From contig CAVRKE010000002.1 in assembly GCA_963722305.1 (NCBI GenBank), positions 447,649 to 511,648 of the forward strand: 64,000 bases of DNA. Reading direction: 5' to 3'. Source of the DNA: Candidatus Levyibacteriota bacterium. Lineage in GTDB: Bacteria; Patescibacteriota; Microgenomatia; Levybacterales; UBA12049. Every line of letters starts with the position of its first letter. Position 1 is the stretch's first letter. A program made the translations under genes and the position numbers. The notes under the pieces were generated by a model. That model ran no database searches. It was given only the letters and a program-made list of their open reading frames with translations, and had not been told where the DNA came from. Positions 1,637 to 43,940 of this stretch are shown piece by piece.

Positions 1637-1818
1637 TTATGTTTAATAAAATTGTCTAAGTTTTCCTTCTTAATCCTGTATTGTTTTCCTGCCTTATGTG
1701 ATTTTAGTTTGCCAGCTTGTATCCAACGATACACAGTAAGGTAAGCAACCTTTAACATCTTTGAGACCTCTTCAATTGAGTAATACTGGTCTTCTAGCAT
1801 ATTAGTTATATTTATCAT
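1633..1818 (-). CDS. Excisionase-family helix-turn-helix DNA-binding protein (Xis/AlpA-like).
   Basis: 61 aa containing ...LTVYRWIQAGKLKSHKAGKQYRIKKENLDNF..., the typical excisionase/MerR-type HTH pattern. Sits next to the recombinase module. Confidence 0.5.
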   Translation of the reverse strand: MINITNMLEDQYYSIEEVSKMLKVAYLTVYRWIQAGKLKSHKAGKQYRIKKENLDNFIKHK

Positions 1819-2941
1819 TGTTTATCATTTCGTCTTGAAAGTCAACTAGCTTTAATAGCTCAAAACTAGTCAGATTTTTACGAATAACATCAAAAGGGCT
1901 TTTTGTAAACGGCACTTTGACACTTTTAGCTTCCGAAAACAACCTATACCAACTTCTATTGCTGTATTTCCCAAACATTACCCGAAGCTCACGAGGAGTA
2001 ACGGCATCAAGGGCGTTTTTGAGACCAAAAAGCTGAATTATACGCTTTGTTCCCAATTTTGGATTGCTAATTATAAGGTCTGCGAGCAGGGCTTTTGGGT
2101 TAGATACTTTGTAGTCAAGTAGCTTAGGTCTTTGTGCTTCTAGTTCATCTAGATAATGCAAGAGAACCTGTTGGGATATATTTGAACTAAATAGATTTTG
2201 AAAAGTAAGTTCCTTTTCTATTTTAAGCGTCTTAAATAGTTGTCTAATTTTTTGGCGATTATTAAGCCTGACTTCCATTCTCAACACTTCTAATCTTTTC
2301 TTTTCAATAAATTTTTCAAAAAGGTTAAGTTGTAAAGCATTGTCTTTTTCTATTGCTCGCTTATCGCTTTTCTTAGCCATTTCTAAGTCTTTAATTTTAT
2401 CGTAAAAAGCTACTTCATAAGAGTTGCTATGCCATTTATAACTATGCCCGTCATTACGATAATCTGTTTGATTTATATCAAGAGCAAGCGGGATATTTGC
2501 CTCTTTAATTTTACTTATCAAGTAATGAGGCGTTGAGCCATCGGTAAGTGGTATATTTTTGGAATAATGAACTGTAGATACTGGAGCATTTATAAACAGC
2601 TCCCAAAAAACTGAAATACCCATTTCCTTTAGCTTTTTTTGTAATAATTCTGCTACCTGTTTAAAGTCTTCGTCTTTTAACTCATCAAAATTATTTCCAT
2701 AGACTAATTTGGGTAGCGATAACTCTATAGACAGGGTTGGCTCATAGCGTCCTGATGTATTATATCGTTTTGTTAAAGTCAATCTAGGCTTGTAGACACC
2801 ATTTTTCAACTCTGTTTTTGTTGGATTTTGAACAAGCATAAAATAGCCTCGTGAGGCGTTCATTTTCTCTTTTTGAAATAAGTCTAATTTATTAACTAAA
2901 AACATATTCTTATCTAGCGTTAGCTTCATCGTATCTATCAT
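1802..2941 (-). CDS. Hypothetical 379-aa protein. A replication initiation role is possible but not established.
   Basis: Long ORF with K/E-rich coiled regions. Assignment rests on position between Xis and SpoVG only. No motif recognised. Confidence 0.25.
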   Translation of the reverse strand: MIDTMKLTLDKNMFLVNKLDLFQKEKMNASRGYFMLVQNPTKTELKNGVYKPRLTLTKRYNTSGRYEPTLSIELSLPKLVYGNNFDELKDEDFKQVAELLQKKLKEMGISVFWELFINAPVSTVHYSKNIPLTDGSTPHYLISKIKEANIPLALDINQTDYRNDGHSYKWHSNSYEVAFYDKIKDLEMAKKSDKRAIEKDNALQLNLFEKFIEKKRLEVLRMEVRLNNRQKIRQLFKTLKIEKELTFQNLFSSNISQQVLLHYLDELEAQRPKLLDYKVSNPKALLADLIISNPKLGTKRIIQLFGLKNALDAVTPRELRVMFGKYSNRSWYRLFSEAKSVKVPFTKSPFDVIRKNLTSFELLKLVDFQDEMINNDKYN

Positions 2942-3206
2942 AATTTTTCATTACATCTTCAAACTTACTGATGACCTCCTTTTCTATGCTTTCCGCAAAG
3001 GATTTATTTATAGGATGAAATATATTGATATTTCTTAACCCCACTTTTTTAGTAGGATAAACGAGCCTATAACCACCTTCGGGTCTTGTTATAATGCCAA
3101 TAGACCCTAAGTAAAGATTGTTGCTTAATACAAAACTTGCAAAACCGATTAAGCCGTTATTTGGCTTAACTGGTATTATTTGTATTTCAGTTATCATGTT
3201 TTTCAT
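2910..3206 (-). CDS. spoVG: SpoVG-family protein (septation/regulatory RNA- and DNA-binding protein).
   Basis: 98 aa containing IQIIPVKPNNGLIGFASFVLSNNLYLGSIGIITRPEGGYRLVYPTKK...NIFHPINKSFAESIEKEVI. This matches the SpoVG pattern (...IHDIKVIEGENGLFIAMPS...DIAHPIN...). Confidence 0.6.
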   Translation of the reverse strand: MKNMITEIQIIPVKPNNGLIGFASFVLSNNLYLGSIGIITRPEGGYRLVYPTKKVGLRNINIFHPINKSFAESIEKEVISKFEDVMKNYDRYDEANAR

Positions 3207-3428
3207 TTGTTTTTGTTTTATTTAACCGTTGGTCAATTTGTATAAGAATGGAAAATAAATCAGTTAGTCGTTTTAGTTCGTCCGAAGGCAGAATACGCCC
3301 GTCCTCATTAGGCTGTATTTGTTTCTCGTTTATTAATTTTGTTACTTCGCTTGTTTCCATTAAGCAAAGTTTATTAAATGAGGCTCGTATCCAACTGTAT
3401 ACGCTCCGTATACGGAAAATGAAGCTAT

Positions 3429-4592
3429 TTAAAAGGTTCTTTTATAAAGCGTGTTTATTTTTGCCTGATTGAAGTCGTATTGTAAGAAGTCGGTAACGCC
3501 AATTTTAGACAAGCTATTACTAATACCCCTGCAAACCTCGTAATAAGTATTCTTTGGGTCTTTTACTTCCCCTGTTGTCGCACCTTCCAATTCGCTTATA
3601 ACCTCTGAGTAGTAAATACCTTTTGTTTTTTTCAAAAGCAATTTAAGCACGGCAAGTTTTCTCGTATCTTTTTTGAATTTTGCTTGCTTTCCGTTTATAA
3701 TAAGAAGTATAGCTTCATCATCAAAAGTAAAAGAAATAGTAGGTTTGTTAGTTTTTGTTGGTTTTTGTTGGTCATTTAACGCAAAACCACTTAACATAAT
3801 CTCTTTTGTATGATTAAAAATCCGTTGAAGATGCACTTTATACTCGCCAACATCAAACTCTTTCAAATAACGCTTAGTGTCAGTTTTATAGCTCATTACC
3901 TCATTTAATTCTTCAAAAAGCATATTAAGACCCATTGCTTCAAATACCTCTTTCTTTTTCAATTTATCATCTCTTAATTTTTCGTAATCCTTATAAAGTC
4001 CGTAAAAAGATACCAATTTATCCCAACTATGCCAAACTTTAGTAGGCAATAGTCTTTGAATGTATTTTCTTTCTTCTTCCAAGAGGTCGTAGCTTGGGGA
4101 AAAAGTCCATCGGACTATAATGCCTTGACTATCTTTATCGCCAAATTTAGACATAAAATCTTTCAGTATAGGGTCATCGGAAGGTATGCTCATAAGAGCG
4201 TGTAATATGCTTCCGTATCGTCCAGCAATTGGGCCCGCACTAGAATTGATACTGCCGTCTTCTTTTTCGTAGGCTTCAAAATGTTGTAATCCTTCTTGAA
4301 AAAAATGATTTTGTTGGAGCTTCTCGTTGTTTTTAACTTGTAGCAGGATTTTATATGCTTGTCTCATTTCTTTTTTTGCAAGCTCGCCAAGTTCCGTTTC
4401 TTTTTTAGTGTCTTTTTCTTTCAGTTTATTAAAAACTTTAATAACAGGACTTAGCCTTTCGTCTTTATCATAGATTTCAACATATTCAAATAAAGTCAAG
4501 AAAAAAGGTTTTGGTATAACCATTGGTATAGCACGGTCTACGAGGGATTGAAGTTTATCTATTAATAATTGGTATTGGTCTGTTTTTTCCAT
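3429..4592 (-). CDS. Hypothetical protein (387 aa), cargo of the element.
   Basis: Uninterrupted ORF. No recognisable motif. Confidence 0.4.
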   Translation of the reverse strand: MEKTDQYQLLIDKLQSLVDRAIPMVIPKPFFLTLFEYVEIYDKDERLSPVIKVFNKLKEKDTKKETELGELAKKEMRQAYKILLQVKNNEKLQQNHFFQEGLQHFEAYEKEDGSINSSAGPIAGRYGSILHALMSIPSDDPILKDFMSKFGDKDSQGIIVRWTFSPSYDLLEEERKYIQRLLPTKVWHSWDKLVSFYGLYKDYEKLRDDKLKKKEVFEAMGLNMLFEELNEVMSYKTDTKRYLKEFDVGEYKVHLQRIFNHTKEIMLSGFALNDQQKPTKTNKPTISFTFDDEAILLIINGKQAKFKKDTRKLAVLKLLLKKTKGIYYSEVISELEGATTGEVKDPKNTYYEVCRGISNSLSKIGVTDFLQYDFNQAKINTLYKRTF

Positions 4593-5128: not shown

Positions 5129-5277
5129 ACAAAACATAAGTTTTCATTAGCTTAGATAATAATCAGGCATAAACAGGTTGTAACTGAAAAGTCTCAAAGA
5201 CCGTTTGGATATTCTGTAAGCTAAACCCAAACTCTATTTTTTGGTTACTAAACATGTTTACTAGGGGGAGCATAAAA

Positions 5278-5303
5278 GACCACCCGAAAGAGGTGGTTTT
5301 TTT
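5278..5303 (+). terminator. Rho-independent terminator (ACCACC-loop-GGTGGT followed by T7).
   Basis: Sequence aaaagACCACCcgaaagaGGTGGTttttttt. The identical sequence recurs at 7659-7684. Confidence 0.7.
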
Positions 5304-5454
5304 ATGCTCTGACAGAATATGAATCGTGCTTTAGCTCGAATCTCGAGCATATCAATGTGAGATCCTGAGCGAAGCCGAAGGACTAGTCGCGAAGCAATTA
5401 GCGCTTAATATAACCTCTTCTTTACTTCTTTCTAAATTGTGAGATGATTTAGTC

Positions 5455-6135
5455 ATGGAAGAGAAAATTAAGAAAGCCAACCCAACGCTGTATAGATATT
5501 TATTTACAGTCACCACTTTTTCAAAACTTCTAGCATTAGGTCTTTTTATCATCCTTCCCTTCTTAGGGTTTTATTTAGGAATGCACTATCAACAAAAAAT
5601 AACCACAGTTACCCCAGTTATATCGGAAGTTCAGAAAATTCCAACACCAACTCCTACTTTAATTGATACTACAAACTGGAAAATATATACAAATACTGTT
5701 GCCGGATATTCCTTAAAATATCCGTCGGGTTGGCAGCTTTTGACCGATGCCGATAACTATCCTACGAACATTATATTAACAAGCCCAGATTATCGGGGAA
5801 ATTCGCCATGGACAGGAGCTAGAATAGAACTATCAGCTTACGGCACAACAACCTCGACAAATGTTAAAGACGTACTCAATGCAGAAGTAGAATCAGGCTC
5901 CCTTAGCGCTTATAAGAATTATAAAGAACTTCAAATAAACGGGGTAAGGGCAATCCAATACGATTTTATTTTTCCTGTTAATAATGGCTTACTTTTTACC
6001 TCAACTGACGTTAGCTTTATTGAGAATAAGAGAATGTATACGTTTAGTCTATCATACTATCCAAGCATAGAACCAAAAAATAAATATTTGGCGACTTTTC
6101 AAAATATTATTTCTACTTTTAGGTTGGCCCAGTAA
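5455..6135 (+). CDS. Membrane-anchored protein with a PT-rich linker and a C-terminal globular domain. Hypothetical. Copy 1.
   Basis: 226 aa with an N-terminal TM (LLALGLFIILPFLGFYLG) and a TPTPT linker. 100% identical to the ORF at 7836-8516. Confidence 0.5.
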   Translation: MEEKIKKANPTLYRYLFTVTTFSKLLALGLFIILPFLGFYLGMHYQQKITTVTPVISEVQKIPTPTPTLIDTTNWKIYTNTVAGYSLKYPSGWQLLTDADNYPTNIILTSPDYRGNSPWTGARIELSAYGTTTSTNVKDVLNAEVESGSLSAYKNYKELQINGVRAIQYDFIFPVNNGLLFTSTDVSFIENKRMYTFSLSYYPSIEPKNKYLATFQNIISTFRLAQ

Positions 6136-6292
6136 AATCAGGATTTAATTGTAGTTTCTTTATTTCTTCCCACCTCTGCCTTAATTCCCCAATATAGATT
6201 AGATTCTGGAAGGATTCCATTGCCTTTGCGGTTATAATAATCTCAGGACTGGGGAGCAAATTAGCCTCGGAAACTTCTGATATAATCAGTTT

Positions 6293-7150
6293 ATGCAATG
6301 GATTTTGCTTACACTTCTAAATGTTTTTGGAAATGGTAGCGTAATATTCTTTACAAAATCAGCAATTAAGAATACTAAATTTGGTTATGCTGGCGTAATG
6401 TTTATTACACTATTTTTTGCTGTAGTTTTGTATCTTCCAATATTTATTTTTAGCTACATAACGCATCCTGTTATTTCATCAAGTATAGATGGTTATTATT
6501 TTCTTTTAGCCTCAATAATACTTACGATATTTAATTTTTTTATTTATTTTCATGCAATCGTTATTAACGATCTTTCAGTTTTTGGACCATTAGATAGTGC
6601 TCGTCCATTTTTCGTAATTTTGTTCTCGTTGCTGTTATTAGGTCAAGTTCCTACGCATTATATTGTTTTTGGATCTATCCTTATTTTTCTAGGAGCAATT
6701 ATCCTCACCTTTTCTAAAAAATTTCTTACAGAAGCTGGTAATTTTCATAAAACATTTTTTGTGATTTTATCAACAGGACTTTTTGGTTTTATATCAATTA
6801 TTGATAAGAAAGCACTTGCCTCCATAGATCCAATAAAATACGTGTTCTTTGTTTTGCTTAGTGTCTGTATCGCAAGCGGAATTATATATTTTAGTAAAAC
6901 AAAACATATAATATTTAAACAATTTTTATCTTTAAAATTATTGGCAATGGGTGTTTTATGGGTAATTGGCTATATTGGAATTATGAGCGCTGTAAAAATC
7001 TCAACACCAAATCAAGTTATTCCTCTTCAAATGACAAGATCCTTATACCTTTCATTTTTAGGCTTTGCTTTTTTAGGAGAAAAAGGGTATTTAAGGAAAA
7101 TTATTGCAGCCGTAGTGATGTTGATTGGAGTTTATTTTATTGTCCAATAG
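6293..7150 (+). CDS. EamA/DMT-superfamily transporter (10-TM permease).
   Basis: 285 aa, about 10 hydrophobic helices arranged as two repeated halves, as is typical for EamA. Promoter-module copy immediately upstream. Confidence 0.5.
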   Translation: MQWILLTLLNVFGNGSVIFFTKSAIKNTKFGYAGVMFITLFFAVVLYLPIFIFSYITHPVISSSIDGYYFLLASIILTIFNFFIYFHAIVINDLSVFGPLDSARPFFVILFSLLLLGQVPTHYIVFGSILIFLGAIILTFSKKFLTEAGNFHKTFFVILSTGLFGFISIIDKKALASIDPIKYVFFVLLSVCIASGIIYFSKTKHIIFKQFLSLKLLAMGVLWVIGYIGIMSAVKISTPNQVIPLQMTRSLYLSFLGFAFLGEKGYLRKIIAAVVMLIGVYFIVQ

Positions 7151-7201
7151 GTTCTAACGTCGTCTACTGCTCGGAGCAAATTAGCCTCGGAATGATATAA
7201 T
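7149..7201 (+). promoter_or_regulatory. Reference copy of the conserved promoter-proximal module: AGGTTCTAACGTCGTCtactgCTCGGAGCaaattaGCCTCggaaTGATATAAT.
   Basis: Extended -10 TGnTATAAT lies 7 nt upstream of the ATG at 7208. Related copies occur at about 6241-6290, 7622-7650, 8622-8670, 13109-13165, 17330-17413, 18301-18345, 21698-21790, 23829-23888, 14945-15030 and 21079-21140. Confidence 0.55.
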
Positions 7202-7207
7202 CTTCTC

Positions 7208-7621
7208 ATGAAATTATCTTCTAATGTAAAATCCTTTCCTAAATTCTTTTCAAGATTATTTCTAACAAAAAACATTGGTGGCATTACTCTTTCTCCCAAT
7301 ATTTTTTTAAAATATGAAATACTTGCAGATTTACAAAAGGAAAATCAAAATCCTAAATACATTGCCTTATTAAATCATGAGCAGGAACATCTTAAAAGAC
7401 AAAGGGAAATGGGTTCAGTAAAGTTTTTTATTAAATATGCTTTATTTCCAAGATTTAGATTTAGAGAAGAAATAATTGCAAACAAAAAGACCGCAAAAGT
7501 CTTAAAAGAGCATGGTATTCCATTTGACTCTAATTTATATGCAAAGTATTTGTCAGGACCAATGTATTTTTGGTGTGTTTCTTATAAGGAAGCAAAGAAA
7601 GAATTAGATAAGTTGGTGTAG
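7208..7621 (+). CDS. Hypothetical protein (137 aa) with an HEQEH motif. Possible small metallo-hydrolase.
   Basis: ...ALLNHEQEHLKRQ... No firm family call. Confidence 0.3.
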   Translation: MKLSSNVKSFPKFFSRLFLTKNIGGITLSPNIFLKYEILADLQKENQNPKYIALLNHEQEHLKRQREMGSVKFFIKYALFPRFRFREEIIANKKTAKVLKEHGIPFDSNLYAKYLSGPMYFWCVSYKEAKKELDKLV

Positions 7622-7658
7622 GTAGGTTCTAACATCGTCTATCCCTCGGAGCATAAAA

Positions 7659-7684
7659 GACCACCCGAAAGAGGTGGTTTTTTT
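7659..7684 (+). terminator. Rho-independent terminator (copy 2, inside repeat copy 2).
   Basis: Identical to 5278-5303. Lies 38 bp after the stop of the 7208-7621 gene. Confidence 0.7.
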
Positions 7685-7835
7685 ATGCTCTGACAGAATA
7701 TGAATCGTGCTTTAGCTCGAATCTCGAGCATATCAATGTGAGATCCTGAGCGAAGCCGAAGGACTAGTCGCGAAGCAATTAGCGCTTAATATAACCTCTT
7801 CTTTACTTCTTTCTAAATTGTGAGATGATTTAGTC

Positions 7836-8516
7836 ATGGAAGAGAAAATTAAGAAAGCCAACCCAACGCTGTATAGATATTTATTTACAGTCACCACTTT
7901 TTCAAAACTTCTAGCATTAGGTCTTTTTATCATCCTTCCCTTCTTAGGGTTTTATTTAGGAATGCACTATCAACAAAAAATAACCACAGTTACCCCAGTT
8001 ATATCGGAAGTTCAGAAAATTCCAACACCAACTCCTACTTTAATTGATACTACAAACTGGAAAATATATACAAATACTGTTGCCGGATATTCCTTAAAAT
8101 ATCCGTCGGGTTGGCAGCTTTTGACCGATGCCGATAACTATCCTACGAACATTATATTAACAAGCCCAGATTATCGGGGAAATTCGCCATGGACAGGAGC
8201 TAGAATAGAACTATCAGCTTACGGCACAACAACCTCGACAAATGTTAAAGACGTACTCAATGCAGAAGTAGAATCAGGCTCCCTTAGCGCTTATAAGAAT
8301 TATAAAGAACTTCAAATAAACGGGGTAAGGGCAATCCAATACGATTTTATTTTTCCTGTTAATAATGGCTTACTTTTTACCTCAACTGACGTTAGCTTTA
8401 TTGAGAATAAGAGAATGTATACGTTTAGTCTATCATACTATCCAAGCATAGAACCAAAAAATAAATATTTGGCGACTTTTCAAAATATTATTTCTACTTT
8501 TAGGTTGGCCCAGTAA
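7836..8516 (+). CDS. Membrane-anchored PT-linker protein, copy 2 (identical to 5455-6135).
   Basis: 100% identity at protein and DNA level. Confidence 0.5.
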   Translation: MEEKIKKANPTLYRYLFTVTTFSKLLALGLFIILPFLGFYLGMHYQQKITTVTPVISEVQKIPTPTPTLIDTTNWKIYTNTVAGYSLKYPSGWQLLTDADNYPTNIILTSPDYRGNSPWTGARIELSAYGTTTSTNVKDVLNAEVESGSLSAYKNYKELQINGVRAIQYDFIFPVNNGLLFTSTDVSFIENKRMYTFSLSYYPSIEPKNKYLATFQNIISTFRLAQ

Positions 8517-8690
8517 AATCAGGATTTAATTGTAGTTTCTTTATTTCTTCCCACCTCTGCCTTAATTCCCCAATATAGATTAGATTCTGGAAGGATTCCA
8601 TTGCCTTTGCGGTTATAATAATCTCAGGACTGGGGAGCAAATTAGCCTCAATTATGATATAATCCTTCAACTATGGGTAGACGAGAAACG

Positions 8691-9930
8691 GATACCGTTG
8701 CAAAAACGGTCACCTGAATAGCCTCAAGAGTTCTCCAATTTCCTCAGGGTTTTGATACCGTTGCAAAAACGGTCACCTGAATAGCCTCAAGAGTTCTCCA
8801 ATTTCCTCAGGGTTTTTCATGGTCTGTTGAAGTGAAGATGTTCCATTTAACATTCTGAATTTAGCGGTACAATCGGTAAAGACTTTCAGTCTTCGTCTTA
8901 AGAAATATGCATTTAACCACATATCAGCGTGTTTAAATGATTCAAAACCTTTCAGCGGCTTTACTCTGGCTTCTAAGTGCGAGTTGTAACTTTCAATCAG
9001 ATTAGTAGTGGTGGGAATAGTTCTGTTATTCATGTAGGTGTTTAATTGCGGTAATCTCCTTTGCATGTCTAAAAGGATCGCAGAAAGTAATGAATCATGT
9101 TTGTAGGTATTATACAGTTTTGCGGCTAATGTGAGGAATTCATCTTCCGCTCTTTTGTGAGAGAACAAGTCTTCTATTCTCTGCATAAAAGGAAGATATG
9201 TTGTATCAGTTCTGACTCCAAGAGTTGTCCTGATATTCTCCTTGTAGTGATTATGGCAAAGTTGAGTAAGCACTTTAGGATATACTGACACACAGGCATC
9301 ATAGATATTGGCATTGTCATCAGAAACAATGGCCTGTAAAGGATAATTCAATAATCGTAAGGAGTTGAAAAACGTCCGGCAAGTTTGGTAGCTTTCAGAT
9401 TGGGAGAAAATATATGTTGGGATATCATGAGTAAGGTAATCAATCCCATACAAAACCGGAATCTTTCTTTCGTATCCCTTCACTTTAATATATTTTCCAT
9501 CAACCACTAATATCCCACAGAACTTACTGCAGTATTTTCTTGTTACGTCTGCTAAATGAGGGAGCTCTCCTAATTCCTTAAGGCAGCGTCTGTAGGCAGT
9601 AGATGGGTCAATTTGGTAGGTTTTTCCTAAGGAGCGGAAAGATACTCCGGTCAGATGAGCAAACAGCAATTTTCCAGTGGAGTTTTTCTTTATCCTATTT
9701 ATCTGAAACCATTTATTACACTTTCTACAAACATATTTAATTTTTCCTCTTCTTACTCCTTTACGGATAGTATTTTGGCTTTCGCAGTGGGGACATCTGT
9801 AAGATGCTGTTTTTTTTCACTCAAGGAGTATATCATCAACAAAGACAATTCTCACTGAGTGGAATTACTGCTTTTGTTTGTTAGAACAATCTAAATACCC
9901 TCTTTCAGGTGACCAAAATGCAACGGTCTC
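8691..9930 (-). mobile_element. IS1595/IS1-like insertion sequence. 27-bp imperfect terminal inverted repeats GA(T/G)ACCGTTGCA(AAAAC/TTTTG)GTCACCTGA and a 9-bp target-site duplication CGAGAAACG.
   Basis: The TSD CGAGAAACG sits at 8682-8690 and 9931-9939. Inverted repeats at 8691-8717 and 9904-9930. The left end is tandemly duplicated as two 63-bp units (8691-8753 and 8754-8816). Single transposase ORF; its stop codon lies inside the inverted repeat. Confidence 0.7.
8773..9820 (-). CDS. DDE transposase with an N-terminal zinc-ribbon (IS1595-family / IS1-related).
   Basis: The track ORF (TTG start at 9669) extends in frame upstream to a GTG at about 9820. That adds VKKTASYRCPHCESQNTIRKGVRRGKIKYVCRKCNKWFQ (CxxC...CxxC zinc ribbon). 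DDE core: VVDGKYIKVKG...AIVSDDNANI...LIESYNSHLEARVKPLKGFESF. Confidence 0.65.
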
Positions 9931-10611: not shown

Positions 10612-10618
10612 AATAAGT

Positions 10619-10724
10619 TTGTATCATTCCCCTAGAGAAAGGTATACTGAAAACGGAGAGCCAGCGAAAATAGGTTTCGGGATAGTATTTTTACTATGCC
10701 CACTGTTAGAGCAACTGGTCTTCC
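10619..10724 (+). ncRNA. Candidate bridge/seek RNA of IS110-A, 5' part (interrupted by IS3 at 10725).
   Basis: Contains CGAAAATAGGTT (compare the left target flank GAAATAAGT^T) and CTGTTAGAGC (GTTAGA is the reverse complement of the right target flank TCTAAC). Position and length match IS110-type left-end ncRNAs. Confidence 0.4.
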
Positions 10725-10778
10725 TATAATGGACCCCATAATCTGCACAGTCACCTTAGACTAAGATAGAATAGTTCT

Positions 10779-11075
10779 ATGGATCAAAAAATACGCAGAA
10801 TTCATCCACCGGCATTTAAAGCCAGAGTTGCTCTGGAGGCAATTAAGGAACAAAAAACAATTGCGGAGCTGTCAAGTATGTACGGTGTACATTCAACCCA
10901 AATAACGAAATGGAAACGCCGGGCGTTGGAGATTCTCTCGCAAGGGTTTTCAGAACATCTTATTCAACGGAAACGGGATGACCGTGAGCTGGTACAGGAA
11001 TTGTATCGGCAAATAGGAAGATTAAAAGTCGAAGTAGACTTTCTTAAAAAAAAGATGGGCATCTTCGACGAGTAG
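10779..11075 (+). CDS. IS3-family transposase OrfA (HTH plus leucine zipper).
   Basis: 98 aa: ...FKARVALEAIKEQKTIAELSSMYGVHSTQITKWKRR...LKVEVDFLKKKMGIF. Slippery TTAAAAAAAAG at about 11045-11055 near its 3' end. Confidence 0.85.
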   Translation: MDQKIRRIHPPAFKARVALEAIKEQKTIAELSSMYGVHSTQITKWKRRALEILSQGFSEHLIQRKRDDRELVQELYRQIGRLKVEVDFLKKKMGIFDE

Positions 11076-11178
11076 GGATATCCTTACTCCCGGAGAAATT
11101 GCTCTGCACATTAACAAAACAGAAAGCGTATTACCAAAGAGTATACGGGCTGATCTTCTGGATATTTCCAGATCAAGT

Positions 11179-11916
11179 TTGTACTATCAGCCAAGACCGG
11201 TTAAACCCGAGGCACTCATTTTAATGAACAGAATTGATGAGGTATATACTGCCCACCCTTTTTATGGTTCAAGACGTATGGCAAAAGAGGTTGGTGTTAA
11301 CAGAAAACAGGCACAACGCCTGATGCGTGAAATGGGCTATGAGGCATTGTATCCGAAGCCTAATTTGAGTAAACCCGATAAACAACACATGTTCTATCCG
11401 TATTTACTCAAAGGAGTAGTTGCAGGATATCCAAATCATATCTGGGGCACAGATATTACGTATATTCGGATGAAACATGGGTTTGTATATTTAACTGCCT
11501 TTCTTGATTGGTTTACCAGATTTGTTGTTTCCTGGAAGCTCTCAATTACCCTTGAAACAGACTTTTGTTTTGATGCTGCAACTGAAGCAATTGAGAAATT
11601 CGGAAGACCAACCATTATTAATGAAGATCAGGGATCACAAAATACCGATCATCTGATGACAGATCTCTGGGAAAATCACAATGTCAAAATCAGCATGGAC
11701 TCACGGGGACGGGCACTGGACAATATCTTCACCGAGAGGTTATGGAGGAGTGTTAAATATGAAGAGGTATACTTAAAAGAATACGCTACTGTTTTGGAAG
11801 CAAAAGAAAACATTGAAAACTATTTTTACTTTTACAATTATGAAAGAAAACACCAATCGCTTAATTACAGAACACCGGCTGAAATATATTTTGGAAAGGA
11901 GGAAAACTTAGTCTAA
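11179..11916 (+). CDS. IS3-family transposase OrfB (rve DDE integrase core). Expected to be expressed as an OrfAB fusion through a -1 frameshift.
   Basis: HIWGTDITYIRMKHGFVYLTAFLDWFTRFVVSW...INEDQGSQNTDH...ERLWRSVKYEEVY...YNYERKHQSLNYRTPAEIY (D,D,E triad with the K/R signature). Confidence 0.85.
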   Translation: MYYQPRPVKPEALILMNRIDEVYTAHPFYGSRRMAKEVGVNRKQAQRLMREMGYEALYPKPNLSKPDKQHMFYPYLLKGVVAGYPNHIWGTDITYIRMKHGFVYLTAFLDWFTRFVVSWKLSITLETDFCFDAATEAIEKFGRPTIINEDQGSQNTDHLMTDLWENHNVKISMDSRGRALDNIFTERLWRSVKYEEVYLKEYATVLEAKENIENYFYFYNYERKHQSLNYRTPAEIYFGKEENLV

Positions 11917-11956
11917 GTTTAGCCGTTTTACTGTGTTGACAATGGGGTCCACCTTA

Positions 11957-12108
11957 TCCCGGTAAGTAGAAAGCGATCTATTCCTGGTTGTGCTTGAAGG
12001 CACACATAACCAACAAGCATATCGTAGTACTTCCTAAGGCAAGACTTTTAAGCTCTCCTTTTCTTTCTTCTCTTTCTCTTCTTTCTTTAAGGCTTAAAAG
12101 AAAAGGAG
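11957..12108 (+). ncRNA. Candidate bridge/seek RNA of IS110-A, 3' part, together with an RBS-sequestering hairpin upstream of the transposase start.
   Basis: Contains GCGATCTATTCCTGGTTG (it mirrors the element's own right end GATTCCTGGTC). The hairpin CTCCTTTTCTTT...AAAGAAAAGGAG overlaps the AGGAGG Shine-Dalgarno. Confidence 0.4.
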
Positions 12109-13056
12109 GTGATGAAAATGATAGTTGTAGGCGTAGATGTCTCAAAAGACACCCTTGTTGCTGTGGCAATTGATAAATCAATACGAATAAAGCATTCATT
12201 TACCGTTAAGAATAACAAGGAAAGTATCGATAAGTGGTTAAATGCTCTTCCGTACAAAAAGATGCTGCTCTCTTGTGAGGCAACTGCCGAATACCACAGG
12301 GTACTTGCACTTTTGGCTCTTTCTTCTAAAATACCATTGAGGTTATTAAATCCCATTGTGACTAAGCAATATACCAAAGCAACTGTTCGAAAGAGAAAAA
12401 CTGACCCTCAAGACGCATTAACCATTGCTAAGCTGGCTCTTGCCGGAGAAGGAAGGCTGATAAGTACCCAAACTTTTCACATTGCCAAAACCCATGAGAG
12501 AACCGCCATAAAGCTAACACACATGAAACAGCGTCTTTTACTAATACAACAGCACGTACAAGAGGTAGATCCGGATGATACAGCTTCTTTTGAGGAGTTG
12601 CAGGTCTGTATTGATACCATAGAACAGTCAATCAAAGCATTTAGGAAGAAAGCAGAAGAAGAGGTTGATTCAAAACTTGTTAAACTGCTTTGCTCTATAC
12701 CGGGAGTGGGAGAAACAATAGCAACGGTACTTCTTGCGGAAATCGGAGATATTAATCAGTTCAAATCAGATAAAGCCCTCGTTGCTTATGCGGGATTGGA
12801 TCCAAAGGTCAAACAATCAGGAGGAAGATTACACCATAATACCCATTTAACTAAAAGAGGCTCTCCTTACCTTAGACAGATGCTCTATACAGGAGCTTCT
12901 ATTGCACAACGGCATGATAAGAAACTTAAGGCGTATTACGAGAAGAAGAGAGCTGAGGGAAAGAGGTACAAAGAAGCAACCATTGCGGTATCAAGAAAAC
13001 TGCTCAATAGAGTATATGCAGTTTTAAAAAGGCAGACACCTTATATACCTGGATGA
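12109..13056 (+). CDS. IS110-family transposase (DEDD RuvC-like N-terminal domain plus C-terminal Tnp domain), element A.
   Basis: 315 aa: MIVVGVDVSKDT... (DEDD N-terminal domain) ...SIPGVGETIATVLLAEIGDINQF...GLDPKVKQSGG...HLTKRGSPYLR (IS110/IS1111 C-terminal signature). About 55% identical to the 13730-14677 protein. Confidence 0.85.
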   Translation: MMKMIVVGVDVSKDTLVAVAIDKSIRIKHSFTVKNNKESIDKWLNALPYKKMLLSCEATAEYHRVLALLALSSKIPLRLLNPIVTKQYTKATVRKRKTDPQDALTIAKLALAGEGRLISTQTFHIAKTHERTAIKLTHMKQRLLLIQQHVQEVDPDDTASFEELQVCIDTIEQSIKAFRKKAEEEVDSKLVKLLCSIPGVGETIATVLLAEIGDINQFKSDKALVAYAGLDPKVKQSGGRLHHNTHLTKRGSPYLRQMLYTGASIAQRHDKKLKAYYEKKRAEGKRYKEATIAVSRKLLNRVYAVLKRQTPYIPG

Positions 13057-13170
13057 GATACATCGGTAACACTTTGAGACCAGGGGTCTTGACAAAAGAT
13101 TCCTGGTCTCTAACGGCATCTATCTCTCGGAGCTGCGTAGCCTCAAAATTGCTTCTGATATAATCATATA

Positions 13171-13320
13171 ATGAAAAAACTTTTTACCTCAGAAAGAATA
13201 ATTGACTTTACTGCTTTAAACGATATTAAGAAAGATACGGAGATAACCGTTGATTATAATTACGGAAATCCAAAAGACAATAGTCCATTATGGTTTAAAG
13301 TGATTCCACCATCTAAGTAA
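13171..13320 (+). CDS. Short ORF (49 aa) that resembles the C-terminal end of a SET-domain protein (...TEITVDYNYG...). Possible gene remnant.
   Basis: Not in the ORF track because it is under 60 aa. Sits directly downstream of a promoter-module copy. Could be a fragment or spurious. Confidence 0.2.
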   Translation: MKKLFTSERIIDFTALNDIKKDTEITVDYNYGNPKDNSPLWFKVIPPSK

Positions 13321-13627: not shown

Positions 13628-13729
13628 TAAAATTTGCGAAGTAATATAAAGAGTCTTCAAAGCCGTCTTAAGTGCAAGTTAAACAGGTTCTAGACCTGGA
13701 ATCTTTTGTCAAGACCCCAGGCCCGAAAC

Positions 13730-14677
13730 TCATATTGCTTTGACAACGTAGGGCGTTTGTCTTTTCCACACAGCGTAAGTACGATAGAGTAGTTTTCTTG
13801 CAACAGCAACAGTTGCTTCTTTGTAAAACTTACCTTCGCCTCTTTTCTTCTCGTAATATGTTTTAAGTTCCATATCATATCGCTGTGCAATACTGGCTGC
13901 AAGAAAAACTGTTCGTCGTAAATACGGTGACCCCCTTTTAGTCAGATGAGTATTATGATGGAGTCCAATGCCACTTTGTTTTACCCTGGGATCAAGACCA
14001 CAAAAGGCAATTAAACAATCTCCACTGGGAAATCTGGTGATATCCCCAATTTCCGCAATTAATGTAGTTGCAATAGTTGTTCCGACACCGGGAATACTCA
14101 TTAACAGCGTGTGTAACTTTGCATCAACAGTTTTTTCCGCAAAACTCTTGAATACTTTTTGTGATTTTTGCAACTGCTGTTGACAGAGTTCTAACTGTTT
14201 TACCAATGATTCATCCATAGCAATCAACTGTAATTGTTGCTGCATTAGAATAAGCATCTGTTCCATTTGGTTAAGTTTTACTGCGGTACGTACAGCCGGT
14301 TTGCCTTGAGTAAACATGGTTTTTGTAAGTAATGTTCCTTCTCCTTGCCCAACAAGTTTTGCAACAACAAAGGCATCAGATAAATCAGTTTTTCTTTTTC
14401 TAACTGTTGCCCTAGTGAATTGTTTTGTCACTATTGGATTAAGTAAGCGAAAAGTTATCCCTCTATCCAAACAGGCAAAAGCAAGTATCTGATGATAATA
14501 TCCGGTTGCTTCGGAACCAATAACTATTCTTTTCCATTTCCCGGTAACTCTTTCCAAGAATTGTTCGATTGCGCCTTTGGTATTTTCTATGAAGAATTGT
14601 TCTTTGACACGAGATGACCGATCGATCCTAACGCCAACAAGACTATCTTTGGCCACATCGATACCAATAACTTGCAT
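13730..14677 (-). CDS. IS110-family transposase, element B.
   Basis: 315 aa: MQVIGIDVAKDS...SIPGVGTTIATTLIAEIGDITRF...GLDPRVKQSGIGLHHNTHLTKRGSPYLRR. Confidence 0.85.
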   Translation of the reverse strand: MQVIGIDVAKDSLVGVRIDRSSRVKEQFFIENTKGAIEQFLERVTGKWKRIVIGSEATGYYHQILAFACLDRGITFRLLNPIVTKQFTRATVRKRKTDLSDAFVVAKLVGQGEGTLLTKTMFTQGKPAVRTAVKLNQMEQMLILMQQQLQLIAMDESLVKQLELCQQQLQKSQKVFKSFAEKTVDAKLHTLLMSIPGVGTTIATTLIAEIGDITRFPSGDCLIAFCGLDPRVKQSGIGLHHNTHLTKRGSPYLRRTVFLAASIAQRYDMELKTYYEKKRGEGKFYKEATVAVARKLLYRTYAVWKRQTPYVVKAI

Positions 14678-14944
14678 AATTTTTCACCTCCTTCCTTTGC
14701 TCTTAATTAAAGAAGGAAGAGAAAGAGAAGGAAGAAATGGAGTTTGCCAAAAAGGTCTCCCGGTGATAATATATCGGTAGGCTTGTTTGTGATCAGCGGC
14801 TAAAACCCGCAACCTGGAATCGATCGCTTACATTATCGGGGAGACCAGATGCTAGAACGGTGAGCACTTTCTCAAGAAGTCTCAAACGTCGTCACGCTGG
14901 CTCTCCGATTTCTATTCTAATCCTTCCTTAAGGTAATGATACAA
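14678..14944 (-). ncRNA. Candidate bridge/seek guide RNA in the left end of IS110-B (267 nt, upstream of the transposase).
   Basis: In transposase orientation it contains GACGACGTT (identical to the left target flank GACGACGT^T), CCGTTCTAGC (GTTCTA is the reverse complement of the right target flank TAGAAC) and GATTCCAGGT (identical to the element's own right end). It ends in an RBS-occluding hairpin CTTCCTT...AAGGAAG. Plus-strand positions: 14885-14893, 14851-14858 and 14812-14821. Confidence 0.5.
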
Positions 14945-15121
14945 ACGTCGTCCCGATGAACACGTTACTCAGGACTTCGTTGCTGCTCAATATCAGGGGA
15001 GGCTCAAATCTCATGCGCCGCTTCAAAGAAGCTAGTCCTCTTGGAGGAGTGAAGAATAAGCCTCTTATTGAAAATTTTAGTTGCTATTTCTCCTAAAATA
15101 GATTATCGTTTATTTAATTAA

Positions 15122-17329: not shown

Positions 17330-17413
17330 GGCTCTAACGTCCCTCTTTCGCTTCGCTCAGGACTATAGTATCAAGGGGAACTGCGTAGCCTCAAAAATAC
17401 ATCTGGTATAATT
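17330..17413 (+). promoter_or_regulatory. Promoter-module copy (GGCTCTAACGTCC...CTCAGGACT...GGGGAAC...GCCTC...TGGTATAAT) upstream of the aldo-keto reductase gene.
   Basis: An extended -10 TGGTATAAT lies 6 nt before the ATG at 17419. Shares all the blocks of the 7149-7201 module. Confidence 0.5.
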
Positions 17414-17418
17414 ACCTT

Positions 17419-36519: not shown

Positions 36520-37640
36520 TTTTGTCAAGAAATTGTATAGGTTACGGAGTTATTCGACAATCCTTCTTTTAGAATGAGGTGGTCCATTGGAGAAATTAAC
36601 CCCAAAGACTTATGCACTCTTTCTGTATTGTAGAATATCAGATAATCAATCAGTTTTCCAGTAAAAAGTACGGGGTTATGGATGTATTCCAGATTATTGT
36701 CAATAAACTCTTCCTGAATGGTTCTATTGAATCTTTCCACAACCCCGTTGATTCTACAGCAGCGGGGATAGATAAATACTTGGGAGATTTGATGCTTTTT
36801 AAGATAATCCTCAAAGTCTCCCAGGAATTCAAGACCATTATCTGTTTGGACAGTCTTAATCCTGTAAGGATACACTACCTCAAGTTTCTTGAAGAAATCT
36901 ACCGTATTCTGGCTATTTAAGTGTTTGTACATTAAGGAGAAGGCAAATTTACCTTTAACATCAACTGCCTGGTAGAAGTAGTATCGAATACCATCCACAA
37001 ACCTTAAAACAGTGTCCATTTCAACATATCCTATCTTGGTAGGTTTAGGAGCATATCTTACTCTTATTCGCCTTGTTCTCTTTCTTTTAGCAAAGCCGCT
37101 ACCGGGATTATGGTAAATCTTGCCTGACTGTTGAAAAAAGAAGTTATTTCTCTTGATTACCTTACCGATGGTTGATACTTCTATAGCCGGAAGTCCTTCT
37201 TTAAGACAATACTTATCTAAAAGAGGTTTAATCTTCTCTTTTCCAAGTCTTGGGTGTTTTTCCCGCAAGGATTTAACATACAAGATTACCTTTGGGTTAG
37301 TTATCATAGTTCTTCTGGTTTTAGGCGTTGTTAGTGTTGGGATTAATGAGGAAATACTATTGTGACTCTCTTTTAACCGTTTCTTCCATATCCAAATAGT
37401 ATCTCTGCCAACCTTAAATGCTTCACGTGTTGTTTTCTCGCCATGTAGATCGTAGAACTCAATGATTCTAAGTCTTTCTTTAGCTATTTCATCTTTAGAG
37501 AACCTTTTAAGACTTGCTACCACTTTTTTCACCTCCTCAAGTCCTCGTATTCTACTAAAGATTGGGTATGCTCTGGCGTAATGATCCATAGTTACGAAAT
37601 GTCGAATATGTTTCGTAACTTATACAGAAATTGAGGAAAA
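36520..37640 (-). mobile_element. IS481-family insertion sequence (about 1.1 kb). Inverted repeats of about 26 bp: TGTATA(G/A)GTTACG(G/A)A...ATTCGACA.
   Basis: Left inverted repeat at about 36534-36559. Its right partner is the reverse complement of about 37609-37636. Single rve-type transposase whose stop lies at the edge of the inverted repeat. Boundaries are accurate to about 10 bp. Confidence 0.6.
36525..37589 (-). CDS. IS481-family DDE transposase (integrase core domain).
   Basis: 354 aa: ...YVEMDTVLRFVDGIRYYFYQAVDVKGKFAF...TVQTDNGLEF...NGVVERFNRTIQEEF... Confidence 0.8.
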   Translation of the reverse strand: MDHYARAYPIFSRIRGLEEVKKVVASLKRFSKDEIAKERLRIIEFYDLHGEKTTREAFKVGRDTIWIWKKRLKESHNSISSLIPTLTTPKTRRTMITNPKVILYVKSLREKHPRLGKEKIKPLLDKYCLKEGLPAIEVSTIGKVIKRNNFFFQQSGKIYHNPGSGFAKRKRTRRIRVRYAPKPTKIGYVEMDTVLRFVDGIRYYFYQAVDVKGKFAFSLMYKHLNSQNTVDFFKKLEVVYPYRIKTVQTDNGLEFLGDFEDYLKKHQISQVFIYPRCCRINGVVERFNRTIQEEFIDNNLEYIHNPVLFTGKLIDYLIFYNTERVHKSLGLISPMDHLILKEGLSNNSVTYTIS

Positions 37641-43220: not shown

Positions 43221-43940
43221 ATGAAGCGGTATAAATTAAAAGTTGACAAACGAAAAGTTTTGGGCAAACAGGTGAAGAAATTAAGGAAAGATGGAACTTT
43301 ACCCTGTAACATTTACGGCAAAGACATTAAATCAACCGCTGTCCAGGTTCCGCTGAAAGATTTTGACACAGTTTACAAAGAGGCCGGTGAAACCGGTTTG
43401 GTTGACGTTGATTTGGAAGGGAAAATCACCCCGGTCTTAATCCACAACATGCAAAAGGATTTCCGCGGCAATGTTTTACACGCCGATTTCTTCCAGGTTA
43501 ATTTGAAAGAAAAAGTCAAAACCATGGTGCCTTTGGAAATTATCGGTGAACCGAAAGCTGTTCTGGAAAAAACAGGGCTGTTGATGAATATTTTGTCCGA
43601 AGTGGAAATCGAAGCACTGCCTGAAGAACTGCCGGAGAGTATTCAGGTCCACGTTGAACATTTAGCCAATATTGACGAGCAAATTACTGTTGCCGACTTG
43701 AAAGTTCCGGCCGGCGTTACGGTTTTAACCGAACCGGAGCAGGTCATTTCCAAGATTGGTGAATTAGTGACCAAAGAAGCCGCCGCCGAAGCAGCGGCAG
43801 CCGAAGCAGCCAAGGCCGAAGCAGCGGAAGGCGCAGCGCCGGCAGAAGGAGCAGCTCCCGCCGAAGGAACCCCGGCTGAAGGAGAAACTGCTAAAGAACC
43901 CACCAAAGAAGAAGCCAAACCAGAAGCCCCAGTCGCCTAA
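43221..43940 (+). CDS. rplY: 50S ribosomal protein L25 / general stress protein Ctc with a C-terminal Ala/Glu/Pro-rich tail.
   Basis: N-terminal L25 domain (MKRYKLKVDKRKVLGKQVKKLRKDGTLPCNIYG). The C-terminal 60 aa are low-complexity AAEAAAAEAAKAEAAEGAAPAEG. Confidence 0.8.
   Translation: MKRYKLKVDKRKVLGKQVKKLRKDGTLPCNIYGKDIKSTAVQVPLKDFDTVYKEAGETGLVDVDLEGKITPVLIHNMQKDFRGNVLHADFFQVNLKEKVKTMVPLEIIGEPKAVLEKTGLLMNILSEVEIEALPEELPESIQVHVEHLANIDEQITVADLKVPAGVTVLTEPEQVISKIGELVTKEAAAEAAAAEAAKAEAAEGAAPAEGAAPAEGTPAEGETAKEPTKEEAKPEAPVA

Follow-up and report, generated by a model that had tools for sequence, protein, structure and literature searches.

Direct repeats of tRNA 3' ends around genomic islands are well known, as are integron arrays. 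The Yersinia high-pathogenicity island, for example, occupies asn tRNA genes, where 17 bp of the tRNA 3' end are repeated. Repeats can also be targets for insertion sequences (ISs): elements of the IS1111-attC group, in the IS110/IS1111 family, insert specifically into integron attC repeats, and the repetitive extragenic palindromic (REP) and bacterial interspersed mosaic element (BIME) type of extragenic repeats are targeted by IS110-family elements such as IS621. Targeting in the IS110 family is known to be directed by a guide RNA, a bridge RNA that is encoded in a non-coding end and has loops pairing to target and donor. Here we describe a short, reiterated intergenic module in a 64,000-nt stretch of Candidatus Levyibacteriota DNA (contig CAVRKE010000002.1, positions 447,649 to 511,648; the window). 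The copy at 7149-7201 is an internal junction of a cassette array anchored at tRNA-Asn. The module is likely to be an attachment (att)-type junction in a tandem array of small, mostly single-gene cassettes integrated at the tRNA-Asn 3' end.

The core of the module is 28 nt long and has the form AGGTTCTAACRTCGTC-N8-GGAGC. Positions 7149-7201 of the plus strand read AGGTTCTAACGTCGTC TACTGCTC GGAGC AAATTAGCCTC GGAA TGATATAAT, with an ATG 6 nt further on at 7208. The parts are as follows.

7149-7201, plus strand: module M1, made up of box A (7149-7164), the N8 segment (7165-7172) and the GGAGC core (7173-7177), followed by its right side.
7178-7188 and 7193-7201, plus strand: right side of M1, which is the left end of the next cassette, AAATTAGCCTC and then the extended -10 sequence TGATATAAT.

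The same architecture recurs in a relative (locus L237). In another relative with 85% YhhQ identity (L134), a tRNA-Asn(GTT) gene lies upstream of yhhQ and is followed by three cassettes, each of which ends in a module with the window-type AAATTAGCCTC and TGATATAAT extension. This tRNA-Asn reads ...AGGTTCTAGGTTCGAGTCCTAGTCGCGGAGCCA, and its acceptor-stem end, discriminator G and first CCA nucleotide (C) together correspond to the GGAGC of the module. Two window modules, M0 and M2, together with the first 130 nt of a 1002-bp repeat, are colinear with the 3' half of the L134 tRNA-Asn, its terminator and a decayed second tRNA copy.

5245-5271, plus strand: degenerate module M0, GTTACTAAACATGTTTACTAGGGGGAGC, preceding copy 1 of the 1002-bp repeat.
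5267-6268, plus strand: copy 1 of the 1002-bp repeat, with GGAGC, a terminator hairpin, a decayed tRNA-Asn-like copy (approximately 5326-5396) and a promoter; the remainder holds a gene for a 226-aa PsbP-like protein (5455-6135) and ends ...CTCAGGACTGGGGAGC, AAATTAGCCTC.
6242-6285, plus strand: junction that ends copy 1, CTCAGGACTGGGGAGC AAATTAGCCTC GGAAACTTC TGATATAAT, before the EamA gene (6293-7150).
7624-7652, plus strand: module M2, AGGTTCTAACATCGTC TATCCCTC GGAGC, then a terminator and decayed tRNA copy.
7648-8649, plus strand: copy 2 of the 1002-bp repeat, 100% identical to copy 1.

At M2, the outer and attR-like junction, the right end of a cassette and the core are joined to the old tRNA-Asn trailer.

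The link to tRNA extends well beyond these relatives. Two sets of loci were collected, one from a scan of one genome per species for the 15-mer GGTTCTAACRTCGTC (at least 120 loci) and one from a metagenome scan chosen solely for the GGAGC-type module (120 loci, 599 kb). When 40 tRNAs from Patescibacteria loci were compared with the module, the 3' halves of tRNA-Asn matched it best. Eleven of the 20 tRNAs in the metagenome loci are tRNA-Asn(GTT), where less than one would be expected at approximately 45 tRNA genes per genome; all 11 lie on the module's strand and upstream of it, by 433-7299 nt, and three further tRNA-Asn cases occur in the genome loci. The N8 and GGAGC of the module repeat 5-14 nt of the cognate tRNA 3' end (compare CCTGCCCGGGGAGC in the tRNA of L213 with CTGCCCGGGGAGC in its module). 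Other tRNA ends are used in the same way: box A is fused to CTCTCCGCCA, a tRNA-Ser end, where tRNA-Ser is present in the locus (L049 and L094), and to GACCCGCAG, a tRNA-Gln end, where tRNA-Gln is present (L069 and L070). DNA inserted beside a tRNA is bounded by the module, which repeats the 3' end of that neighbouring tRNA.

Empty and occupied sites can be compared between relatives. The empty site in L134 reads tRNA-Asn...GGAGC/CACAAG-terminator (the slash marks the junction). In L237, where the tRNA-Asn is identical, the site is occupied and reads GGAGC/AAATTAGCCTCGGAA-promoter-164-aa open reading frame (ORF)-TAAATAGGTTCTAACGTCGTCTATCTCGCGGAGC/AAATTAGCCTC-GTGATATAAT-ATG, and the second junction carries AAATTAGCCTC-TGATATAAT as in the window. 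Loci L049 and L094 have in common tRNA-Ser and a 77-nt island that contains the module, with different DNA between them; their homology breaks at the tRNA-Ser end and at the module. Homology between relatives thus breaks at the core, and cassette content varies, also between close relatives (as in L128, beside the same core gene). Cassettes between tRNA and module encode, for example, PurT-like and surface proteins. The median module-to-module spacing is 708 bp (n=60), and one 5.9-kb contig (L222) carries 11 nearly identical modules, most with one small co-oriented ORF between them.

These junctions suggest a model for cassette movement. The right end of a cassette would consist of box A and N8, and GGAGC would be the place of DNA exchange. 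The core would be followed either by the left end of the next cassette (AAATTAGCCTC and the extended -10) or, at the outer end of the array, by the original tRNA trailer and terminator. Cassettes would move via site-specific recombination at the core, using a recombinase encoded elsewhere in the genome and acting in trans, with the tRNA end in the role of attI and the module in that of attC, as in integrons. The 1002-bp repeat may represent one excision and re-integration at GGAGC. A broader version of this model, put forward tentatively, is a superphylum-wide, integron-like capture system of the Patescibacteria (candidate phyla radiation), in which tRNA ends (mainly Asn, also Ser and Gln) could be the primary site, the 28-nt module the cassette-borne site, and integrase-less cassettes could be moved by a recombinase in trans.

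Several points weigh against the att-type reading. Pfam, NCBIfam and PHROGs gave no tyrosine or serine recombinase in those window ORFs that were scanned, both beside and within the array, a set that covers part of the small ORFs. Integrases are not among the 25 most frequent Pfam families in 251 ORFs of module loci (genome loci within 5 kb upstream of the module, and metagenome loci), a ranking in which a single occurrence could hide. The window contains no intact tRNA, so that the anchor is visible only in relatives, and some modules are far from any tRNA within 8-kb loci. The evidence for movement is wholly comparative. In addition, a core identity of 5-14 bp and a non-palindromic module are unlike the core of a classical tyrosine recombinase, and the near-invariance of box A across the superphylum is left unexplained by the data.

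Neither all-against-all BLAST nor Pfam summaries revealed a recombinase or any other recurrent gene neighbouring the module. Directly left of the array, at 1802-4592, lie minus-strand ORFs of 379 and 387 aa with no Pfam, NCBIfam or meaningful PHROGs match; these may be candidates for mobile-element functions.

The 1002-bp repeat bears on the mode of exchange. The earlier note, made from the sequence of this stretch, placed the junctions of the repeat at the GGAGC block, and this is correct: each copy begins with GGAGC and ends with GGAGCAAATTAGCCTC, and both ends lie at GGAGC. Copy 2 is inserted with the GGAGC of M2 on its left and AAATTAGCCTC with a promoter (TGATATAAT, 8655-8663) on its right. 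The two left flanks of the repeat share only the 5 bp of GGAGC, a length that is difficult to reconcile with an alternative that needs no dedicated recombinase. In that alternative, modules (28 nt plus approximately 60 nt of lineage-specific flanks) would serve as homology arms, and RecA-dependent or short-homology recombination, following natural transformation for instance, would swap, duplicate or delete cassettes; the likeness to tRNA-Asn would be the relic of one ancient insertion. It would agree with the near identity of modules within one array (L222, and the three copies of GGAGCAAATTAGCCTC in the window), with the lack of an integrase among the frequent Pfam families near the arrays, and with the joining of the same module and promoter to different ORFs in the window and L134. 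However, the 3' part of the module agrees with whichever tRNA is local (Asn, Ser or Gln) and with its acceptor sequence, which would require repeated independent tRNA-end events, and the origin of box A on new cassettes is not explained. Homology arms of this kind are an unlikely basis for the arrays.

Further evidence comes from the context of the module in other genomes. About half of the GGTTCTAACRTCGTC matches listed are from Patescibacteria and represent many candidate phyla, though the Patescibacteria are a small part of the collection; the remaining matches look like chance occurrences in large genomes. The 15-mer has the fixed extension N8-GGAGC in at least 38 Patescibacteria instances, and the module is intergenic in Patescibacteria loci. 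Among the Patescibacteria matches listed, to which the following counts also refer, the upstream neighbour is co-oriented in 54 cases versus 13 (p=4e-7), and the downstream neighbour is co-oriented in 42 and convergent in 27. A terminator-like hairpin with a T run follows the module in 58% of cases (26% in random windows) and usually begins 4-10 nt past GGAGC. Extra copies nearby number 43, compared to 5.7 expected, and 42 of these 43 have the same orientation. Many modules elsewhere read GGAGCCA, and in one subclass CRTCG-TCCA-CGAYG forms a 5-bp hairpin in which some changes are paired. In other Patescibacteria, the module is always at a cassette or tRNA junction. Outer junctions of the M2 type, where a cassette end is joined to the tRNA trailer, explain the terminators that follow modules elsewhere.

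Several of these features also recall a module that acts mainly as RNA, in the form of a tRNA-like tag (T-arm-like hairpin, acceptor strand and NCCA) in the 3' untranslated region before the terminator. Such a tag would be recognised by a tRNA-processing or RNA-binding factor and would set mRNA 3' ends or stability. Co-orientation with the upstream gene, the position 4-10 nt ahead of terminator hairpins, the CRTCG-TCCA-CGAYG subclass with its paired changes and the many GGAGCCA copies are all in keeping with this. On the other hand, the module is absent from approximately 92 kb of core genes of the lineage, short modules have no significant fold and there is no Rfam match. Neither DNA breakpoints at the core nor a match to the neighbouring tRNA type would be expected of an RNA-only signal, and the terminator is already accounted for as the tRNA gene's own trailer. 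A mainly RNA-based function is quite improbable, although the module may have an added RNA-level role beside its role as a junction.

The earlier note's interpretation, a dedicated upstream promoter element (an UP-like or transcription-factor site) driving the downstream genes, is largely refuted and has very little probability: five window modules are indeed followed by TGNTATAAT and a start codon 6-9 nt further, but the distance from GGAGC to the -10 sequence varies (17-25 nt), the orientation statistics point to the upstream gene, a terminator is usually next in other genomes, three window copies (21078, 22450 and 23829) face convergent genes with no promoter downstream, and GCCTC-N8-TGATATAAT is at chance level (9 found versus 6 expected). 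This interpretation was set aside because the module is intergenic, tied to the upstream gene and followed by terminators. The promoter sequences that the note had reported are present, as an extended -10 (TGATATAAT or TGGTATAAT) lies 6-9 nt before the starts at 6293, 7208, 8673, 13171 and 17419; this is the ordinary extended -10 promoter of the next cassette's left end.

Other candidates were considered and rejected. The module is not an integron attC, as the site ends are unpaired and there is no GTTRRRY core, and it is not a known RNA family, as neither the window nor relatives gave an Rfam match. A DNA uptake sequence is excluded by the restriction of copies to one locus and one orientation and by their absence from approximately 92 kb of core DNA. 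A Nus-factor boxA/nut-like antitermination site was suggested by a resemblance (GUUCU..AAC and 8-nt spacer) and was discarded because the module is absent from core operons and the tRNA link explains it. Likeness to the 23S rRNA helix 93/I-CreI homing site was superseded by the tRNA-Asn alignment; none of the loci collected contained a 23S rRNA gene. Repeat doublets approximately 55 nt apart (for example, in L059) recall a miniature clustered regularly interspaced short palindromic repeat (CRISPR) array, but the second repeat halves differ.

Copies in the window were gathered by fuzzy search, profile search and reading of the sequence. Approximately 12 were found, all on the plus strand and within 5.2-24 kb, with none in the remaining 45 kb. 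They start at 5245 (degenerate), 7149, 7624, 10615/13110, 13685/14944, 17330, 18310 (degenerate), 18584/21078, 21698, 22064 (degenerate), 22450 and 23829; the copy at 10615/13110 is split by IS110-A and those at 13685/14944 and 18584/21078 by IS110-B. The reiterated module of the earlier note therefore exists intergenically, but it is looser than was described and its strict blocks are rarer than claimed. When 2 mismatches or fewer are allowed, the 5' block GGTTCTAACGTCGTC is confined to two sites, 7150 and 7625; the middle block CTCAGGACTNGGGGAGC has no match in the window with up to 3 mismatches, and GGAGCAAATTAGCCTC has three exact copies (6253, 7173 and 8634), two of which are inside the 1002-bp repeat. 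Further copies are as follows.

10615-10619, plus strand: left part of module M3, AAGTT, cut off from the right part by IS110-A.
13110-13164, plus strand: right part of module M3, CTAACGGCATC TATCTCTC GGAGC TGCGTAGCCTC ... TGATATAAT.
14944-15003, plus strand: right part of module M4, AACGTCGTC, a 37-nt insert with CTCAGGACT, then ATATCAGG GGAGG.
17330-17412, plus strand: module M5, GGCTCTAACGTCCCTC, an insert, TATCAAGG GGAAC, TGCGTAGCCTC, TGGTATAAT; before an aldo-keto reductase gene (17419-18285).
21078-21137, plus strand: right part of module M7, AACGTCGTC, a G+C-rich hairpin, CTATCAAGG GGAGG; then a convergent NUDIX gene.
21698-21830, plus strand: module M8, AAGTTCTAATGTCCCTC, a long insert, CCCCGGAGT.
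22450-22465, plus strand: module M10, the box A variant AGGGTTTAGCGTCGTT, overlapping the stop codon of a 108-aa gene.
23829-23891, plus strand: module M11, AGGTCCTAATGTTGTC, a G+C-rich hairpin, TAGACTATCA GGAAAAC; the last before the core genome (yhhQ at 24478).

DNA folds of seven window modules leave box A and the GGAGC side unpaired (z-scores of +0.9 to +1.1 for the short forms), and only the inserted G+C hairpins fold.

Short hairpins of this type (CCGCCCGC...GCGGGCAGG, or the GAGCGAAGCCGAAG type) are found at precise points within modules, decayed tRNA copies and even box A, at the following sites.

21087-21122, 23845-23874 and 5368-5382 of the window; L031:1361-1406; L034, approximately 5890-5930; L134, approximately 6980-7070: G+C-rich hairpins.

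The surrounding DNA is otherwise A+T-rich. These hairpins have the appearance of a distinct family of small insertion elements.

Neither the fuzzy nor the profile search found a copy in the 24.4-64 kb part of the window, 40 kb of core genes that include yhhQ, vanX-like, coaBC, rpoD, ruvB and dnaN. Unbiased 20-kb yhhQ regions of three relatives (L130, L132 and L135) lack the module as well, as does the rest of L128; with the window's own core, approximately 92 kb of core sequence is module-free. In L128, the closest relative (93% YhhQ identity), yhhQ is bordered by a long-form module preceded by a different gene; the contig stops at this point, 832 bp from the boundary. Because core regions lack the module and the content of L128 differs, the module marks a hypervariable locus. 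The earlier note had named confinement to this locus as evidence against its own interpretation; the motif is restricted to one variable locus in the window and close relatives, yet it is found in very many other Patescibacteria.

In viral contigs, matches to the module are mostly by chance and inside phage genes. In one viral contig with capsid, portal and terminase genes (L125:14690-14760), A+T-rich DNA that holds a terminator and a canonical module gives way to G+C-rich DNA exactly after GGAGCC, which is a hint only of a prophage junction at the module or else of an assembly chimera.

Mobile DNA is dense in the array, with an IS256-like element, two identical IS3 copies and three IS110 copies. 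Both IS110 proteins have the conserved domains PF01548 and PF02371 (Transposase_20, DEDD), and all three copies lie in box A.

10620-13109, plus strand: IS110-A, with a gene for a 315-aa DEDD transposase (12109-13056), interrupted by IS3 (10725-11957); in box A at AAGTT^CTAAC.
13692-14943, minus strand: IS110-B, transposase gene at 13730-14677; in box A of module M4.
18591-21077, minus strand: IS110-B', the second copy of IS110-B, interrupted by IS3 (19379-20611); in box A of module M7.

The flanks of the IS110 copies rejoin to an intact box A with no target duplication. For IS110-B, GGTTCT (13686-13691) and AACGTCGTC (14944-14952) restore a perfect box A, GGTTCTAACGTCGTC. Both IS110 types end TGTATCATT...CCWGGTCT and are inserted after GTT; IS110-A is in the module's orientation, and IS110-B was inserted twice on the other strand, at GACGACGTT^AGAACC. 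The two inverted insertions of IS110-B in the 5' block had been recognised in the earlier note, although the site is after GGTTCT and not GGTTCTA. Its placement of IS110-A after a module GGT was mistaken, as this GGT is the tail of the IS end ...CCTGGTCT. The idea that the module is a safe harbour for mobile DNA is supported for IS110, for which it is a preferred landing site.

The left non-coding ends of IS110-A and IS110-B are alike save for two short segments, which are GACGACGTTT and GTTCTA in IS110-B and AAAATAGGTTT and GTTAG in IS110-A. In each element the pair corresponds to that element's left flank and to the complement of the flank on its right. Judged from the sequences, these guide-like segments fit guide-RNA-directed targeting, and they may match box A because it is multi-copy and nearly invariant. 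No Rfam family matched the IS110 left ends.

The two IS3-family copies (10725-11957 and 19379-20611) are 100% identical, inverted relative to each other and each nested in an IS110 copy; these nested insertions are very recent. The IS256/Mutator-family element (8691-9930) has a 9-bp target duplication (CGAGAAACG), interrupts the cassette gene that starts at 8673, and carries a perfect 63-bp tandem duplication (8691-8816). Another IS is indicated in the core-gene region, where the ORF at 36525-37589 has rve-type integrase core domains (DDE transposase). A 15-nt periodic repeat (CCGAAGCAGCGGCAG-like) at 43771-43932, within the ORF 43221-43940, encodes an Ala/Glu/Lys-rich low-complexity stretch.

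Genes between the modules of the window are unrelated to each other and accessory. They encode two PsbP-like copies, EamA, a glycosyltransferase with TPR repeats, an aldo-keto reductase, NUDIX, VanY and GNAT proteins and small unknowns. Across loci, the cargo is of accessory or defence type (GNAT, NUDIX, VanY, EamA, AbiEii-type ATPases, restriction and methylase genes, and reverse transcriptases). The spacing of -10 sequence and start codon in the window (6277-6293, 7193-7208, 8655-8673, 13156-13171 and 17404-17419) leaves no room for a ribosome-binding site. Cassette mRNAs are probably leaderless, because the start codon is 6-9 nt after the -10 box.

Some loci show additional features next to tRNA genes. 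In L134, the intact tRNA-Asn is closely preceded by two partial tRNA-Asn 5' halves (6950-7103), both of which carry an inserted G+C-rich hairpin; this suggests repeated rearrangement on the 5' side of tRNA-Asn too. In Parcubacteria-type genomes, a conserved element of approximately 180 nt directly follows tRNA genes of various kinds. Within it are ACTAGTGGACTTTT, a TTTCT/AGAAA hairpin, CCCGTATAGGGAA and two copies of GGTTCTAAC, of which the second lies 102 nt beyond the first. No Rfam family matches this element, and its consensus fold shows little covariation.

L013:170-350, L060:1639-1819, L074, L026, L035, L084 and L031:624-804: sites of the approximately 180-nt element.

Patescibacteria have tiny genomes and mostly cannot be grown alone, and little is understood of how they acquire and exchange accessory genes. 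If the att-type reading is true, the 28-nt tRNA-linked cassette junction is a sequence handle on variable gene pools in metagenomes, as well as a candidate site-specific recombination system and a possible integration site for genetic tools. It would also provide a case, found in nature, in which IS110 elements have been retargeted to one 15-bp site in both orientations. As a caution, Patescibacteria assemblies break at such arrays, as in the L128 contig. A literature search on the motif, on integrons and genomic islands in Patescibacteria and on uptake sequences found nothing relevant. The combination of stacked, integrase-less single-gene cassettes, a nearly invariant 16-nt superphylum arm and several tRNA ends was not found described.

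Compared with known systems, the module resembles REP/BIME repeats in being a short, multi-copy, intergenic gene-end repeat that is a specific landing site for IS110 elements whose left ends have matching guide-like segments. REPs, however, are species-specific palindromic hairpins with no link to tRNA ends or cassette boundaries, whereas the module is non-palindromic. The arrays are closer to those of integrons: mostly single, co-oriented and unrelated accessory genes are each followed by a repeat resembling a recombination site, cassettes are 0.4-1 kb in size, content varies between close relatives and IS110/IS1111-family insertion is specific to the repeats. Unlike attC, the module is not an imperfect palindrome and lacks R''/L''-L'/R' boxes and a GTTRRRY core; no adjacent integrase (IntI) was seen beside the module array among the window ORFs scanned, the 3' end of a tRNA gene, not attI, anchors the array, and the cassettes of this lineage carry their own promoter. 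With tRNA-targeted islands, the arrays share the placement of inserted DNA between an intact tRNA and a direct repeat of its 3' end, a crossover at the extreme 3' end, the possibility of tandem accretion and even the tRNA species (Asn). They differ from such islands in that the units are single genes of approximately 0.5-2 kb with no integrase gene, stacked up to 11 at a time, and in that a box A arm that is nearly invariant over the superphylum is combined with several tRNA ends.

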